64,000 nt of DNA from Escherichia coli (GTDB taxonomy: Bacteria > Pseudomonadota > Gammaproteobacteria > Enterobacterales > Enterobacteriaceae), in NCBI RefSeq assembly GCF_024502345.1, contig NZ_JALDNN010000001.1; one strand, given 5' to 3'. Each line of letters starts with the position of its first letter. The first letter of the stretch is position 1. Positions 1-62,634 of this stretch are shown one piece after another. A program made the position numbers and the translations under genes. The notes beneath the pieces were generated by a model that saw nothing but the letters and a program-made list of their open reading frames with translations, had not been told where the DNA came from and made no database searches.

Positions 1-62
1 CTCAGCCTGATGTTTTTCAATAAAGACATACTTCATTTCAGGCGCTTCGCGAAGTATGTCGC
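1..62 (-). mobile_element. IS3 element, internal segment (3' end of orfA onward); continues past the window edge; split by IS30
   Basis: Reverse complement of 1-62 continues the IS3 OrfA frame (..TYFAKRLK*) that is broken at 1284; GC dinucleotide at 61-62 is repeated at 1284-1285. Confidence 0.7.
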
Positions 63-1283
63 TGTAGATTCAATTGGTCAACGCAACAGTTATGTGAAAA
101 CATGGGGTTGCGGAGGTTTTTTGAATGAGACGAACATTTACAGCAGAGGAAAAAGCCTCTGTTTTTGAACTATGGAAGAACGGAACAGGCTTCAGTGAAA
201 TAGCGAATATCCTGGGTTCAAAACCCGGAACGATCTTCACTATGTTAAGGGATACTGGCGGCATAAAACCCCATGAGCGTAAGCGGGCTGTAGCTCACCT
301 GACACTGTCTGAGCGCGAGGAGATACGAGCTGGTTTGTCAGCCAAAATGAGCATTCGTGCGATAGCTACTGCGCTGAATCGCAGTCCTTCGACGATCTCA
401 CGTGAAGTTCAGCGTAATCGGGGCAGACGCTATTACAAAGCTGTTGATGCTAATAACCGAGCCAACAGAATGGCGAAAAGGCCAAAACCGTGCTTACTGG
501 ATCAAAATTTACCATTGCGAAAGCTTGTTCTGGAAAAGCTGGAGATGAAATGGTCTCCAGAGCAAATATCAGGATGGTTAAGGCGAACAAAACCACGTCA
601 AAAAACGCTGCGAATATCACCTGAGACAATTTATAAAACGCTGTACTTTCGTAGCCGTGAAGCGCTACACCACCTGAATATACAGCATCTGCGACGGTCG
701 CATAGCCTTCGCCATGGCAGGCGTCATACCCGCAAAGGCGAAAGAGGTACGATTAACATAGTGAACGGAACACCAATTCACGAACGTTCCCGAAATATCG
801 ATAACAGACGCTCTCTGGGGCATTGGGAGGGCGATTTAGTCTCAGGTACAAAAAACTCTCATATAGCCACACTTGTAGACCGAAAATCACGTTATACGAT
901 CATCCTTAGACTCAGGGGCAAAGATTCTGTCTCAGTAAATCAGGCTCTTACCGACAAATTCCTGAGTTTACCGTCAGAACTCAGAAAATCACTGACATGG
1001 GACAGAGGAATGGAACTGGCCAGACATCTAGAATTTACTGTCAGCACCGGCGTTAAAGTTTACTTCTGCGATCCTCAGAGTCCTTGGCAGCGGGGAACAA
1101 ATGAGAACACAAATGGGCTAATTCGGCAGTACTTTCCTAAAAAGACATGTCTTGCCCAATATACTCAACATGAACTAGATCTGGTTGCTGCTCAGCTAAA
1201 CAACAGACCGAGAAAGACACTGAAGTTCAAAACACCGAAAGAGATAATTGAAAGGGGTGTTGCATTGACAGATTGAATCTACA
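63..1283 (+). mobile_element. IS30, complete 1221-bp copy
   Basis: Starts TGTAGATTCAATTGGTCAACGC, ends GATTGAATCTACA (terminal inverted repeats); length 1221 bp; single 383-aa transposase ORF; flanked by 2-bp GC direct repeat. Confidence 0.9.
125..1276 (+). CDS. insI: IS30 transposase
   Basis: 383-aa ORF with N-terminal HTH and DDE transposase; matches IS30 InsI as I recall it. Confidence 0.93.
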   Translation: MRRTFTAEEKASVFELWKNGTGFSEIANILGSKPGTIFTMLRDTGGIKPHERKRAVAHLTLSEREEIRAGLSAKMSIRAIATALNRSPSTISREVQRNRGRRYYKAVDANNRANRMAKRPKPCLLDQNLPLRKLVLEKLEMKWSPEQISGWLRRTKPRQKTLRISPETIYKTLYFRSREALHHLNIQHLRRSHSLRHGRRHTRKGERGTINIVNGTPIHERSRNIDNRRSLGHWEGDLVSGTKNSHIATLVDRKSRYTIILRLRGKDSVSVNQALTDKFLSLPSELRKSLTWDRGMELARHLEFTVSTGVKVYFCDPQSPWQRGTNENTNGLIRQYFPKKTCLAQYTQHELDLVAAQLNNRPRKTLKFKTPKEIIERGVALTD

Positions 1284-1555
1284 GCGGCCTTTTGGAGGAT
1301 AGCCAGCTCTTCATCCCGTTCTGCCAGCTGGCGTTTGAGACGTGCAATCTCGGTAGACATCTCCAGTTCACGTTCAGAAGACGTCTGCTGATTTTGCTGT
1401 TTACTGCGCCAGTTGTAGAGCTGTGATTCATACAGGCTGAGTTCACGGGCTGCGGCAGTAACACCGATGCGTTCAGCAAGCTTCAGGGCTTCACTGCGAA
1501 ATTCAGGCGAATGCTGTTTACGGGGTTTTTTACTGGTTGATACTGTTTTTGTCAT
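1284..1555 (-). pseudogene. insE: IS3 OrfA (InsE-type), first ~91 codons; reading frame interrupted by IS30
   Basis: ATG at 1555; frame runs MTKTV..AILQKAA, then enters IS30 at 1283; the remaining codons resume at 62..1. Confidence 0.65.
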
Positions 1556-1620
1556 GTGAGTCACCTCTGACTGAGAGTTTACTCACTTAGCCGCGTGTCC
1601 ACTATTGCTGGGTAAGATCA
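1284..1620 (-). mobile_element. IS3 left-end segment (terminal repeat plus 5' part of orfA)
   Basis: Reverse complement of 1601-1620 is TGATCTTACCCAGCAATAG.., the IS3 terminus as I recall it; OrfA begins MTKTVSTSKKPRKQHSPEFRSEALKLAERIG. Confidence 0.75.
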
Positions 1621-2231
1621 TAGATGCTACGGATATCCATATCCAGAACTTCAGCAATCTGATATGGATTATAACCAGAAACCATATACCCCATTATGGT
1701 GAATTCCATCTGAGTTAATGTGTTACCTCTGGTAAATGATAAATAACGACCAATAAATAGTTGTCTGATCTTTTCATTGGCAACATCAAGACCATCATCA
1801 TTATATATGACAGCAGATATTGCTGAGTTGTGTTTTCGCCAGTAATTAGCTAACGATTGCATATTGCGGTCGCTGACTAAAACAATCCCCATGTCAGTAC
1901 TTGCAAGATAGTCAATCCAGTCTTTTTCAAGGAATAGACGTAAAAAACTTACTGAAAAATCGACAAAAATATATCCGCTTAATCTCGCATTGTGGTTTTT
2001 AGTTAAGATACCTTCTACCACACCACGATTAAAATATGAACTTTCTTCGGGCCACATACAAAAACACGAGTTTGCGCAGTACTGCAAACGCGGTGACTCT
2101 TCTGGCATTATTTGGCAATGCATTGAGCAACTATTGCATGTAAGACTTTTATAACGACTACAAAGCCCCATGTTAAGAACCTCCCTATCCGTATATAATT
2201 GCATAATTTCATTGGTGATTGATGATGTCAA
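1602..2231 (-). CDS. yqeH: LuxR-family (GerE-type HTH) transcriptional regulator, YqeH-like; last codons supplied by the IS3 terminus
   Basis: 209-aa ORF; C-terminal LuxR-type HTH (..GNTLTQMEFTIMGYMVSGYNPYQIAEVLDMDIRSIY); sits next to the yqeG remnant as in K-12; stop codon lies inside the IS3 end. Confidence 0.6.
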   Translation of the reverse strand: MTSSITNEIMQLYTDREVLNMGLCSRYKSLTCNSCSMHCQIMPEESPRLQYCANSCFCMWPEESSYFNRGVVEGILTKNHNARLSGYIFVDFSVSFLRLFLEKDWIDYLASTDMGIVLVSDRNMQSLANYWRKHNSAISAVIYNDDGLDVANEKIRQLFIGRYLSFTRGNTLTQMEFTIMGYMVSGYNPYQIAEVLDMDIRSIYDLTQQ

Positions 2232-2585
2232 TACACCATGATTTTGTAATTTTGCTGGGAAAAATTGCGATTAATCTGTATTTGCTATAATTCTGATTAA
2301 GACATTTTAAAATGCATTTCTCGTTATTAAATATGATTATGTTTCACTGATTTAATCTTACCTGGTTGAGGGTGGTTCAGATAACTATCTCATGGTATGA
2401 GAATATCTATATCGCAAATTGTTTTTGAATGACCAGAAGATATCTTGCGAATCTAAGTTATGCATCTTAAATGGTCTTATTTAAGATGTTCAGATCTCTT
2501 TGTGTGTTTAACTAACTGATAATACTAGGATATGATGAGAGAAGTGATAGGGCGGAATAATAACGAATGAACATTATGAAAACTG

Positions 2586-2620
2586 GAATGGTTCAAAATT
2601 GTAGCAATTTTGAACCATTC
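2586..2620 (-). terminator. Probable terminator hairpin downstream of the yqeG remnant
   Basis: Perfect 15-bp inverted repeat GAATGGTTCAAAATT / AATTTTGAACCATTC with 5-nt loop, directly after the yqeG stop, followed on the minus strand by a U-rich tract. Confidence 0.4.
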
Positions 2621-2630
2621 ACAATGGATA

Positions 2631-2865
2631 TCAGCTAAAGAACATTACCGATACGCACAGGATACCCACGATCAGCGTAATCAGATTTCCGATGGAACGC
2701 CAGGGTTTAAGCGCCGGGATCAGATACGTTGACAACGTAGGCATGATGAAAAGTATCATGGCAATGAGCGGGCCGCTGATCGCGTAAATCATCGAAATCG
2801 CGTTCGGGTTAATGCAACAAACAATGAAGGTGATCAGCGATACCAACATAATTGATAGTGCGCGG
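2631..2865 (-). pseudogene. yqeG: yqeG remnant: C-terminal ~77 codons of an HAAAP-family (SdaC/TdcC-like) transporter, truncated by IS903
   Basis: Frame ..GPLIAMILFIMPTLSTYLIPALKPWRSIGNLITLIVGILCVSVMFFS* aligns with the C-terminus of SdaC in this same window (..[51 protein letters not shown]); upstream part of the frame is IS903 sequence. Confidence 0.65.
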
Positions 2866-3922
2866 GGCTTTGTTGAATAAATCGAACTTTTGCTGAGTTG
2901 AAGGATCAGATCACGTATCTTCCCGACAACGCAGACCGTTCCGTGGCAAAGCAAAAGTTCAAAATCACCAACTGGCCCACCTACAATAAAGCCCTCATCA
3001 ACCGTGGCTCCATAACTTTCTGGCTGGATGATGAAGCTATTCAGGCCTGGTATGAGTCAGCAACACCTTCTTCACGAGGCAGACCTCAGCGCTATTCTGA
3101 CCTTGCCATCACGACTGTGCTGGTCATTAAACGCGTATTCAGGCTGACCCTGCGCGCTGCGCAGGGCTTTATTGATTCCATTTTTTCTCTGATGAACGTT
3201 CCGCTACGCTGCCCGGATTACAGCTGTGTCAGCAGGCGGGCAAAGTCGGTTAATGTCAGTTTCAAAACGCCCACCCGGGGTGAAATCGCACACCTGGTAA
3301 TTGATTCCACCGGGCTGAAGGTCTTCGGTGAAGGCGAGTGGAAAGTCAAAAAGCATGGCCAGGAACGCCGCCGTATCTGGCGTAAGCTGCATCTCGCCGT
3401 TGACAGTAAAACACATGAAATCATCTGCGCTGACCTGTCGCTGAACAACGTTACGGACTCAGAGGCCTTCCCCGGGTTAATCCGGCAAACCCACCGGAAA
3501 ATCAGGTCAGCCGCCGCCGATGGCGCTTACGATACCCGGCTATGTCACGATGAACTGCGGCGTAAGAAAATCAGCGCGCTTATCCCTCCCCGAAAAGGTG
3601 CGGGTTACTGGCCCGGTGAATATGCAGACCGTAACCGTGCAGTGGCTAATCAGCGAATGACCGGGAGTAATGCGCGGTGGAAATGGACAACAGATTACAA
3701 CCGTCGCTCGATAGCGGAAACGGCGATGTACCGGGTAAAACAGCTGTTCGGGGGTTCACTGACACTGCGTGACTACGATGGTCAGGTTGCAGAGGCTATG
3801 GCCCTGGTACGAGCGCTGAACAAAATGACGAAAGCAGGTATGCCTGAAAGCGTGCGTATTGCCTGAAAACACAACCCGCTACGGGGGAGACTTACCCGAA
3901 ATCTGATTTATTCAACAAAGCC
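2866..3922 (+). mobile_element. IS903-group (IS5 family) element, complete 1057 bp, no target-site duplication
   Basis: Left end GGCTTTGTTGAATAAATCG at 2866, inverse copy ending at 3922; exactly 1057 bp; flanks agtgcgcgg / cattcttct do not match, whereas IS903 normally makes a 9-bp duplication. Confidence 0.85.
2943..3866 (+). CDS. IS903-type DDE transposase (307 aa from a GTG start)
   Basis: ORF ..GLKVFGEGEWKVKKHGQERRRIWRKLHLAVD..DGAYDTR..SIAETAMYRVK; the track ORF begins at TTG 2898, but GTG 2943 gives 307 aa, which I recall as the IS903 transposase length. Confidence 0.8.
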   Translation: MAKQKFKITNWPTYNKALINRGSITFWLDDEAIQAWYESATPSSRGRPQRYSDLAITTVLVIKRVFRLTLRAAQGFIDSIFSLMNVPLRCPDYSCVSRRAKSVNVSFKTPTRGEIAHLVIDSTGLKVFGEGEWKVKKHGQERRRIWRKLHLAVDSKTHEIICADLSLNNVTDSEAFPGLIRQTHRKIRSAAADGAYDTRLCHDELRRKKISALIPPRKGAGYWPGEYADRNRAVANQRMTGSNARWKWTTDYNRRSIAETAMYRVKQLFGGSLTLRDYDGQVAEAMALVRALNKMTKAGMPESVRIA

Positions 3923-10031: not shown

Positions 10032-10114
10032 CCCAGAGGTATTGATAGGTGAAGTCAACTTCGGGTTGAGCACATGAATTACACCAGCCTGCGCAGATGC
10101 GCAGGTTTTTTTTT
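10032..10114 (+). ncRNA. omrB: OmrB small RNA
   Basis: CCCAGAGGTATTGATAGGTGAAGTCAACTTCGGGTTGAGCACATGAATTACACCAGCCTGCGCAGATGCGCAGG followed by a T9 run. Confidence 0.9.
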
Positions 10115-10228: not shown

Positions 10229-10316
10229 CCCAGAGGTATTGATTGGTGAGATTATTCGGTACGCTCTTCGTACCCTGTCTCTTGCACCAACCTGCGCGGA
10301 TGCGCAGGTTTTTTTT
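10229..10316 (+). ncRNA. omrA: OmrA small RNA
   Basis: CCCAGAGGTATTGATTGGTGAGATTATTCGGTACGCTCTTCGTACCCTGTCTCTTGCACCAACCTGCGCGGATGCGCAGG followed by a T8 run; shares 5' and 3' ends with OmrB. Confidence 0.9.
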
Positions 10317-38735: not shown

Positions 38736-38812
<77 letters not shown>

Positions 38813-38844
38813 TCACCGTACTGCTTTATTTCATTAAATTTGAT

Positions 38845-38921
<77 letters not shown>

Positions 38922-38954
38922 TCACCGTACTGCTTTACTTCATCAAATTTTAAT

Positions 38955-39031
<77 letters not shown>

Positions 39032-40339: not shown

Positions 40340-40570
40340 TGATATTCTGTATGCCGTTTTTACGGATATGACAGGGTGAGGGGTAACCTCACATCCTGAT
40401 TATTGACTAAGTGCGCGTTGTTCATGCCGGATGCGGCGTGAACGCCTTATCCGGCCCACAAATCATGCAAATCCAAAATATTGCAGGAGTTATGTAGGCC
40501 TGATAAGCGTAGCGCATCAGGCATTTATGCGTTTAGGGTGAGGGAAAACCTCACCCTTTTTAATTCTGAG
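40340..40570. repeat. BIME / REP cluster between mltA and tcdA
   Basis: Several imperfect palindromic units (GCCGGATGCGGCGTGAACGCCTTATCCGGCC; AGGCCTGATAAGCGTAGCGCATCAGGC; GGGTGAGGG..CCTCACCC). Confidence 0.75.
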
Positions 40571-43516: not shown

Positions 43517-43722
43517 AAAAAAAAGCACCGCAATTAGGCGGTGCTACATTAATCACTATGGACAGACAGGGTAAATGTACAGGAAGTGAAAAAAGGTAGC
43601 TTTGCTACCATGGTCTGAATCGCAGACCAATTGCAAACACAACAACACAACATCACAACCGTAAGCCAAAAGTTCACCAGAACACGCATTCCGATAAAAC
43701 TTTTCGTTCCGGCTCAGGAAGT
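43517..43722 (-). ncRNA. gcvB: GcvB small RNA
   Basis: Reverse complement begins ACTTCCTGAGCCGGAACGAAAAGTTTTATCGG, contains the G/U-rich region GTTGTGATGTTGTGTTGTTGTGTTTGC, ends in a terminator hairpin plus T8; divergent from gcvA. Confidence 0.9.
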
Positions 43723-61137: not shown

Positions 61138-61683
61138 GTGGACGATTTGACCGCACAAGCCCTGAAAGATTTTACTGCACGCTACTGCGATGCGTGGCAT
61201 GAAGAGCATAAAAGCTGGCCGTTAAGTGAGGAACTGTACGGTGTTCCTTCACCGTGCATTATTTCAACTACCGAAGATGCCGTATACTGGCAACCCCAGC
61301 CGTTTACCGGGGAACAAAATGTAAACGCGGTTGAACGCGCTTTTGATATTGTGATACAACCCACAATTCATACCTTTTATACGACTCAGTTTGCCGGGGA
61401 TATGCACGCGCAGTTTGGCGATATCAAACTGACATTGCTGCAAACCTGGAGTGAAGACGACTTCCGTCGGGTGCAGGAAAATCTGATTGGTCATCTGGTG
61501 ACTCAGAAAAGGCTAAAACTGCCGCCCACGCTATTTATCGCGACGCTGGAAGAAGAGTTAGAGGTCATCTCGGTGTGTAATCTCTCCGGTGAAGTGTGCA
61601 AAGAGACGCTGGGAACACGTAAACGGACGCATTTAGCCTCAAATCTTGCGGAATTCCTTAATCAACTTAAGCCTCTTCTGTAA
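61138..61683 (+). CDS. syd: SecY-interacting protein
   Basis: 181 aa. Confidence 0.9.
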
Positions 61684-61893
61684 TCCAAATACCCCATCTG
61701 GTTGTGAGAGATCTCTTACAGACTCTGTAGGAGATCGCCAGGAAATAAGCGAATACTTAAAAAGATAAGAATCGTTATTTTCATTTAAAATCAAAATGTT
61801 GATTGTTAATTCTTAACTTTCATATGAAATTTTCCTTAAGGCATTGTCTGTAAGCGCCTTGTAAGACTTCGCGAAAAAGACGATTCTATCTTC

Positions 61894-62259
61894 GTCGACA
61901 GGGAGTCAGACAACGAAGTGAACATCAGGATGATGACACTTCTGCAGGACACACCAGGATGGTGTTTCAGGGAAAGGCTTCTGGATGAAGCGAAGAGGAT
62001 GACGCAGGACGCGTTAAAGGACACCTCCAGGATGGAGAATGAGAACCGGTCAGGATGATTCGGTGGGTCAGGAAGGCCAGGGACACTTCAGGATGAAGTA
62101 TCACATCGGGGTGGTGTGAGCAGGAAGCAATAGTTCAGGATGAACGATTGGCCGCAAGGCCAGAGGAAAAGTTGTCAAGGATGAGCAGGGAGCAACAAAA
62201 GTAGCTGGAATGCTGCGAAACGAACCGGGAGCGCTGTGAATACAGTGCTCCCTTTTTTT
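61894..62259 (+). ncRNA. csrB: CsrB regulatory RNA (CsrA-sequestering)
   Basis: Begins GTCGACAGGGAGTCAGACAACGAAGTGAACATCAGGATGATG; about 18 GGA-containing motifs (CAGGATG, AGGATG, AGGAAG, AGGGA); ends in GC hairpin plus T7. Confidence 0.9.
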
Positions 62260-62304
62260 ATTCCTGCTATCCTTCGCGGCAGTTTTTCTTATTGAGGTTG
62301 CTTT

Positions 62305-62634
62305 ATGACCACTCATGACCGCGTTCGTCTCCAGTTGCAGGCGCTTGAAGCGTTACTGCGTGAACATCAGCACTGGCGAAACGATGAACCCCAGCCGCAT
62401 CAATTTAATAGTACCCAACCGTTCTTTATGGACACCATGGAACCACTGGAGTGGTTGCAGTGGGTGCTGATCCCGCGAATGCACGATTTGTTAAATAACA
62501 ACCAGCCGTTACCGGGCGCTTTTGCTGTTGCACCCTATTATGAAATGGCGCTGGCGACGGACCATCCGCAACGCGCGCTTATTCTGGCTGAGTTGGAAAA
62601 ACTGGATGCTCTTTTTGCGGATGATGCGAGCTAA
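62305..62634 (+). CDS. yqcC: DUF446 protein
   Basis: 109 aa. Confidence 0.85.
   Translation: MTTHDRVRLQLQALEALLREHQHWRNDEPQPHQFNSTQPFFMDTMEPLEWLQWVLIPRMHDLLNNNQPLPGAFAVAPYYEMALATDHPQRALILAELEKLDALFADDAS

Follow-up and report, generated by a model that had tools for sequence, protein, structure and literature searches.

A csrB locus identical to that of K-12 in a 64-kb stretch of Escherichia coli DNA

Results

The csrB gene lies between syd and yqcC

The window, a stretch of 64,000 nucleotides of Escherichia coli DNA, carries csrB in the repeat-rich region between syd and yqcC (Table 1). A sequence-only reading had placed a CsrB RNA of about 366 nt at 61894-62259 in this intergenic region, and the two flanking genes are where it put them. 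Scanning the whole window against Rfam, we found CsrB (RF00018) at 61903-62262 on the plus strand with 380.4 bits (E 1.2e-110; gathering score 71), and the match covers positions 1-356 of the 356 in the model. The alignment with K-12 MG1655 has 100% identity over 61680-62310, a stretch of 631 bases that takes in all 369 nt of csrB, 214 nt upstream and 48 nt downstream. The K-12 record lists a 'small regulatory RNA CsrB' (b4408, 369 nt, 2924156-2924524) between syd and yqcC. Because that stretch aligns at 100% identity, the annotated csrB corresponds to 61894-62262. The start given earlier is therefore exact, and the end belongs at 62262 with a length of 369 nt by the K-12 annotation; the T-run of the terminator has its last T at 62259, 3 nt earlier.

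The assignment to CsrB had been staked on an Rfam search and on there being CsrB homology at all. It is upheld by the full-length RF00018 match and by base-for-base identity with K-12, promoter included. It is practically certain that 61894-62262 on the plus strand is csrB and specifies the 369-nt non-coding CsrB RNA of E. coli, a CsrA antagonist with 22 GGA sites, and no observation speaks against this. The copy is the reference CsrB itself, which is already known and brings no new biology. CsrB thus accounts for the repeat-rich syd-yqcC intergenic region, which is no longer a possible unknown. The position between syd and yqcC is the one typical of enterobacteria, as seen in the annotations of K-12 and strain 120899 and by tblastn in orthologous loci.

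Outside the locus the window differs from K-12. Over positions 3923-63999 we counted 709 mismatches and 6 gaps against K-12, an identity of 98.81%, as in a non-K-12 E. coli strain. At this divergence about 7.5 differences are expected in the 631 nt at 61680-62310 that hold csrB, its promoter and its terminator, and there are 0, a result that fits strong constraint across the entire csrB unit. Of 5426 complete E. coli genomes, 5425 contain the 601-nt stretch around csrB.

As a side observation from that search (window 61700-62300), one of the 5426 complete genomes gave no match, and some genomes had two places, one place being on a plasmid.

Table 1. Features of the csrB locus and its flanks (window coordinates; +1 = 61894; hairpin statistics are from the orthologue alignment)
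Feature	Position	Strand	Description	Basis
syd	61138..61683	+	SecY-interacting protein; upstream flank, context only	ORF list; K-12 and strain 120899 annotation; synteny
UvrY inverted repeat	61703..61720	.	TGTGAGAGATCTCTTACA, 18 bp, centred at -183/-182	exact match
Extra UvrY half-site	61726..61734	+	TGTAGGAGA, 5 bp downstream of the inverted repeat	read from sequence
IHF-like box (putative)	61789..61804	.	AATCAAAATGTTG on + and AATCAACATTTTG on -, overlapping; between UvrY site and promoter	
Probable -35 element	61859..61864	+	TTGTAA	TTG invariant in 23 orthologous promoters, consensus CTTGTAAGAC
Probable -10 region	61882..61889	+	GATTCTAT	conserved among Enterobacteriaceae
csrB	61894..62262	+	CsrB RNA	Rfam RF00018; K-12 b4408 annotation mapped by 100% identical alignment; fold z-score -3.85
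GGA hairpin 1	61923..61935	+	CAU-CAGGAUG-AUG; GGA site 2	Rfam consensus; 92% of cells paired
GGA hairpin 2	61951..61965	+	GGA site 4	Rfam consensus; compensatory changes in 4/5 pairs
GGA hairpin 3	61977..61991	+	loop CUGGAUG; GGA site 6	Rfam consensus; 88% paired, 3/5 compensatory
GGA hairpin 4	62001..62015	+	GGA site 8	Rfam consensus; 95% paired, 4/5 compensatory
GGA hairpin 5	62025..62037	+	CUCC-AGGAU-GGAG; site 10 in loop, site 11 in 3' stem	Rfam consensus
GGA hairpin 6	62045..62064	+	GGA site 12	Rfam consensus; 88% paired, 5/6 compensatory
GGA hairpin 7	62066..62078	+	loop UCAGGAAGG; GGA site 13	Rfam consensus; 90% paired
GGA hairpin 8	62086..62098	+	GGA site 15	Rfam consensus; inner pairs 3/3 compensatory
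GGA hairpin 9	62120..62128	+	GC-AGGAA-GC; GGA site 16	Rfam consensus; 96% paired
GGA hairpin 10	62133..62145	+	GUUCA-GGA-UGAAC; GGA site 17	minimum-free-energy and centroid folds; absent from Rfam consensus
GGA hairpin 11	62175..62184	+	UC-AAGGAU-GA; GGA site 19	Rfam consensus; invariant
GGA hairpin 12	62201..62216	+	GUAGC-UGGAAU-GCUGC; GGA site 21	Rfam consensus; 100% paired, one-sided changes
RNase E segment	62217..62226	+	single-stranded GAAACGAACC with the 'necessary cleavage site'	published mapping (PMC5027483)
Intrinsic terminator	62227..62259	+	11-bp stem 62227-62252 with GGA site 22, then T7 62253-62259	terminator scan
yqcC	62305..62634	+	DUF446; downstream flank, context only	ORF list; K-12 and strain 120899 annotation; synteny

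GGA motifs are enriched and irregularly spaced

We counted 22 GGA, 14 AGGA, 8 AGGATG, 6 CAGGATG, 2 AGGAAG and 4 AGGGA motifs on the plus strand of 61894-62262. Over the 64-kb window, taking either strand, the background is a mean of 4.35 GGA per 366 nt (sd 2.36), and outside the csrB locus the count never exceeds 13. Dinucleotide-preserving shuffles of the csrB region gave 0.36 AGGATG (maximum 3) and 0.12 CAGGATG (maximum 2). As the shuffles yield so few of either motif, the enrichment of GGA units is not compositional. The repeated CAGGATG / AGGAAG / AGGGA units reported earlier are thus present at that place and on that strand, far above chance. The accompanying figure of about 18 GGA repeats was right as to there being many, and the count is 22. 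Liu et al. in 1997 are said to have originally counted 18 imperfect repeats in CsrB. We looked for the 18-repeat figure in the cited CsrB literature and did not find it; the number given there is 22 GGA (PMC5027483), in agreement with our count.

Repeats of this kind could be taken for a tandem-repeat or CRISPR-like array acting as DNA or as crRNA precursors. Consistent with such an array, csrB holds direct-repeat families, with four copies of TCAGGATGAT/A and four ACATCAGGATGATG-like copies. These families are short (10-14 nt), however, with a conserved core of only about 7 nt, and their copies are irregularly spaced, at 29, 134 and 18 nt in one family and 125, 38 and 47 nt in the other. The distance from one GGA to the next also varies, from 4 to 32 nt, and Tandem Repeats Finder reported no tandem array in csrB even at a minimum score of 30. 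No cas genes flank the locus, where the neighbors are syd and yqcC, and the full-length Rfam CsrB match explains the repeat pattern. Lacking periodicity, such an array is vanishingly improbable here, in line with the warning of the sequence-only reading against this confusion, and the repeats are those of the CsrB RNA.

Most GGA motifs are displayed in loops or linkers

The csrB RNA folds with -120.7 kcal/mol (z = -3.85), and none of 100 shuffles was as stable. In the Rfam consensus structure, hairpin loops contain 11 of the GGA motifs and single-stranded linkers 9; the other 2 are in stems, at 62034 (a hairpin stem) and 62228 (the terminator). With hairpin 10 added to the consensus, the numbers become 12 in hairpin loops, 8 in linkers and 2 in stems. 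Base-pair probabilities gave a mean P(unpaired) of 0.80 for GGA bases versus 0.44 for all bases of the RNA, and 19 of the 22 sites have a P(unpaired) of at least 0.5. Folding, which had been suggested as a way to count the GGA motifs in hairpin loops, therefore puts them mostly in loops or linkers. In the minimum-free-energy fold of the single sequence, the number of GGA in hairpin loops falls to 9, since this fold adds interior loops and a long-range helix (~16-27 with ~277-282, and others) outside the conserved structure, the helix being without a counterpart in the Rfam consensus.

Support differs among the hairpins. Hairpin 5 is the most conserved, with pairing in 100% of cells and a nearly invariant sequence among the 34 orthologues. 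Support for hairpin 10 is moderate, with 70% of cells paired and both-side changes in four of five pairs, in a gappy part of the alignment. Hairpin 11 sits inside an invariant block, UCANGGAUGAGCAGGGAGCA, which also holds GGA site 20. The invariance of the block across the orthologues follows from its having served as their search pattern, and because hairpin 11 is invariant, covariation says nothing about it either way.

The 3' end holds a terminator and an RNase E segment

The strong terminator claimed for this RNA was found by a terminator scan as an 11-bp stem, 7 of its pairs being G-C, with T7 directly after it. In the 34 orthologues this stem is 97% paired, with compensatory changes in 5 of 10 pairs. 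As in the RF00018 family, csrB is thus an independent transcription unit ending in a Rho-independent terminator. Just before the stem lies the single-stranded segment in which RNase E cleavage has been mapped at A327 and A331 (PMC5027483). These positions correspond to 62220 and 62224, both A in the window, and the segment is nearly invariant in the 34 orthologues. The published numbering fits the window, with five GGA downstream of +263 and the 22nd in the terminator. CsrA at GGA sites 20 and 21 protects CsrB from RNase E (PMC5027483). Sites 20 (62189) and 21 (62207) and the segment 62217-62226 are all present here, so the elements for CsrD/RNase E turnover are in place and may function as such.

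Upstream control elements

An inverted repeat of the UvrY/GacA type lies far upstream of csrB, as is usual for the RF00018 family. Its sequence, TGTGAGAGATCTCTTACA, occurs once in the 64 kb, with 0.02 expected, and a site for phosphorylated UvrY has been found by ChIP-exo and footprinting with the same sequence and at the same position (PMC4682653). Allowing up to 3 mismatches, we found the inverted repeat in 96 of the 111 orthologous loci with enough upstream sequence, among the matches listed, and in none of 416 control windows. Its distance is 472 nt here and has a median of 470 nt in the orthologues. An extra UvrY half-site, TGTAGGAGA, has likewise been described downstream of the inverted repeat (PMC4682653), and in a promoter alignment of 23 sequences it is conserved as TGTGAGAGA or TGTAGGAGA.

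Downstream of the UvrY site and ahead of the promoter, an IHF-like box matches WATCARNNNNTTR on both strands, and its AATCA..TTA block is conserved in the same alignment of 23 sequences. A putative IHF site has been reported at the same relative location, and CsrB levels are about 10-fold IHF-dependent (PMC4682653). The exact bases assigned to the box, 61789-61804, are a tentative choice. From conservation and spacing, TTGTAA would be the -35 element and GATTCT a weak -10 element; the latter occupies -12 to -7, 17 bp after the -35 element, and is a weak match to TATAAT. A generic scan of 61600-62400 for sigma-70 promoters gave 0 sites, as is expected of an activator-dependent promoter.

The IHF-like box also bears on whether the RNA might be the paralogous CsrC, or another member of the Csr/Rsm clan, instead of CsrB. 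These RNAs share the GGA-hairpin architecture and belong to the same Rfam clan, CL00106. Within that clan, however, the CsrB model matches best, does so over its full length and is the one kept in clan competition. The gene has the same sequence as the csrB annotated in K-12 and occupies the csrB-specific position between syd and yqcC, and the literature reports an IHF site for csrB, not for csrC (PMC4682653). We therefore give the CsrC reading a nearly negligible probability and treat the gene as csrB.

The locus is conserved among enterobacteria

To find orthologues we scanned representative bacterial genomes with the conserved 3' box TCANGGATGAGCAGGGAGCA, which gave at least 120 loci. Among the matches listed, 113 of 120 have csrB similarity by blastn. 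The remaining seven have none by blastn, and those with titles come from unrelated phyla and are chance matches. The csrB loci among the matches listed range from Escherichia, Salmonella, Citrobacter and Enterobacter to Pantoea, Erwinia, Mixta, Hafnia and Edwardsiella. Wherever flanks were available among the matches listed, csrB lies between syd and yqcC homologues (tblastn, Enterobacterales), and 16 of the most divergent listed loci are full-length CsrB by Rfam, with 138-263 bits.

For covariation we used 34 diverse csrB orthologues in a plain MAFFT alignment, unfitted to structure, on which we tested the Rfam consensus plus three extra hairpins. Standard pairs occupy 90.4% of cells versus 35-49% when the partners are slid by 1-3 columns. 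Both-side (compensatory) changes were found in 42 of 69 pairs and 209 cells, and none of 500 column shuffles reached the observed pairing values by any measure. Textbook compensatory swaps occur in hairpin 4 and in the terminator, including A-U/G-C/C-G at 21/10/3; the swaps in hairpin 4 include C-G/U-A at 22/12 and G-C/U-A at 17/15. The hairpin structure is thus maintained by compensatory base changes, as in the RF00018 family. The number of GGA per orthologue is 19-30 (median 23.5). Taken across species, the UvrY site, the IHF-like box, the promoter, the GGA hairpins, the RNase E site and the terminator form a set that is kept from Escherichia to Edwardsiella, Hafnia and Pantoea.

Two loci depart from the usual arrangement or length. 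In Enterobacillus tribolii DSM 103736 the space between syd and yqcC contains three full-length csrB genes in tandem (L076:7700-9538, minus strand), with Rfam scores of 232-239 bits and 5' ends 609 and 612 bp apart. Their RNA parts are 96.5-97% identical and their upstream parts only 47-79%, and each of the three copies has a UvrY-type inverted repeat at the usual distance. In all other loci among the matches listed, csrB is single-copy. The CsrB of Pseudescherichia vulneris (L047:3729-4118, minus strand) is 390 nt long and has an extra insert of about 16 nt, (G)GTTTATGGATGAACAG, that repeats the neighboring GGA hairpin unit. This insert would illustrate the gain of a binding site by local hairpin duplication.

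Reading frames within csrB are not conserved

ORFs of 45-71 codons overlap csrB on both strands, and the repeats could in principle encode a repetitive peptide in a small protein, from either a 46-codon GTG ORF at 61918-62058 (+) or a 71-codon ORF at 62101-62316 (-). E. coli and E. albertii keep the 46-codon frame intact. Outside Escherichia, Salmonella and Citrobacter, however, most genera have it interrupted by in-frame stops or by length changes that are not a multiple of 3; it is broken in, for example, Enterobacter, Superficieibacter, Pluralibacter, Phytobacter and Cedecea. Substitutions preserve base pairing instead, and indels of 1-2 nt are frequent in the alignment of csrB orthologues. 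With the internal ORFs not conserved in the aligned orthologues, we dropped the protein-coding reading, which is extremely unlikely, and csrB is non-coding, without a conserved reading frame, like the RF00018 family. A second function of CsrB in Escherichia besides CsrA titration, such as translation of the 46-codon GTG ORF (61918-62058), whose frame is intact only in the closest relatives, is very unlikely as well, and nothing that we observed speaks for it.

Other features of the window

The window is not K-12 DNA, given the 98.81% identity over 3923-63999 and an unrelated segment at 1-3922. This segment has no counterpart in the collinear K-12 region and matches multi-copy IS30, IS903B (IS5-like) and IS3-family transposase elements. 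In none of the complete E. coli genomes of the collection does a single place contain at least 80% of it. It looks like an insertion-sequence cluster abutting the kduI/kduD side.

Several other RNA genes were observed. GcvB has a full-length Rfam match of 199 bits at 43517-43722 (-) and adjoins gcvA as in K-12. OmrB at 10032-10113 (+) and OmrA at 10229-10316 (+), which score 86 and 97 bits, are in tandem between aas and galR, the same place as in K-12. At 38739-39031 (-) there are three almost identical tRNA genes, spaced by about 110 bp, which correspond to the initiator tRNA-Met genes metZ, metW and metV of K-12. A marginal Rfam match to ES036 (CssrF) at 40459-40501 (+) has 46.5 bits, where the gathering score is 37.6; it is tcdA-mltA intergenic by K-12 coordinates, and the K-12 record carries no annotation there. 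Perhaps it is no more than a terminator or a 3' UTR element.

Discussion

Proposed function of the csrB locus

CsrB is a central and thoroughly studied regulator that acts through CsrA on carbon metabolism, biofilm formation, motility and virulence. The csrB RNA of the window is a string of short hairpins and linkers displaying 22 GGA motifs, typically CAGGA(U/A/C)G, each of which could be bound by one RNA-binding face of a CsrA homodimer. By binding many dimers at once, it would draw CsrA off its lower-affinity mRNA targets and so reverse post-transcriptional control. CsrA dimers are known to bind GGA motifs, with a preference for those in hairpin loops, and can bridge two sites (PMC5027483, PMC7652899, PMC4682653). 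The K-12 CsrB has been found experimentally to bind and sequester multiple CsrA dimers and to antagonize CsrA in vivo (PMC5027483, PMC7652899). As the csrB of the window is identical in sequence to the K-12 RNA, we infer that it too sequesters CsrA.

Transcription would start at G61894 from a weak promoter that needs phosphorylated UvrY at 61703-61720, with IHF presumably aiding it by bending the DNA between the UvrY site and the promoter, and would end at the terminator at 62227-62259. The csrB gene is activated by BarA-phosphorylated UvrY with IHF, and ppGpp/DksA and the DeaD and SrmB helicases contribute (PMC5027483, PMC7652899, PMC4682653). A dependence on UvrY and IHF is thus predicted for the copy in the window. 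Its decay is likewise predicted to depend on RNase E and CsrD. RNase E would make the first cut in the single-stranded segment 62217-62226, CsrA on GGA sites 20 and 21 would block this cleavage, and CsrD would relieve the block. It has been reported that RNase E begins CsrB decay just upstream of the terminator and that CsrD relieves the CsrA block in response to glucose, via EIIA-Glc (PMC5027483, PMC7652899, PMC4682653).

Comparison with known Csr and Rsm RNAs

The closest known system is the CsrB of K-12 MG1655 (b4408, RF00018), which agrees in sequence, neighbors, number of GGA (22), position of the UvrY site and RNase E numbering. There is no difference in the locus, and the surrounding genome is 98.8% identical over 60 kb. 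E. coli CsrC is the product of another gene at another locus and is shorter than CsrB, with fewer sites. Like CsrB, it sequesters CsrA by multiple GGA sites, depends on UvrY via a far-upstream inverted repeat and undergoes CsrD/RNase E-dependent decay (PMC4682653, PMC7652899). Unlike that of csrB, its inverted repeat is less symmetric, and IHF is not needed (PMC4682653).

The RsmB, RsmX, RsmY and RsmZ RNAs of Pectobacterium and Pseudomonas resemble CsrB in titrating CsrA/RsmA/RsmE dimers with GGA motifs in hairpin loops and in being transcriptionally activated by the GacA/UvrY orthologue (PMC7652899). RsmX, RsmY and RsmZ are much shorter than CsrB, however, and pseudomonads are without CsrD (PMC5027483). 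The genomic surroundings of the Rsm RNAs of Pectobacterium and Pseudomonas differ too, and these RNAs are analogues of CsrB in function and relatives within the clan, not orthologues of the csrB locus.
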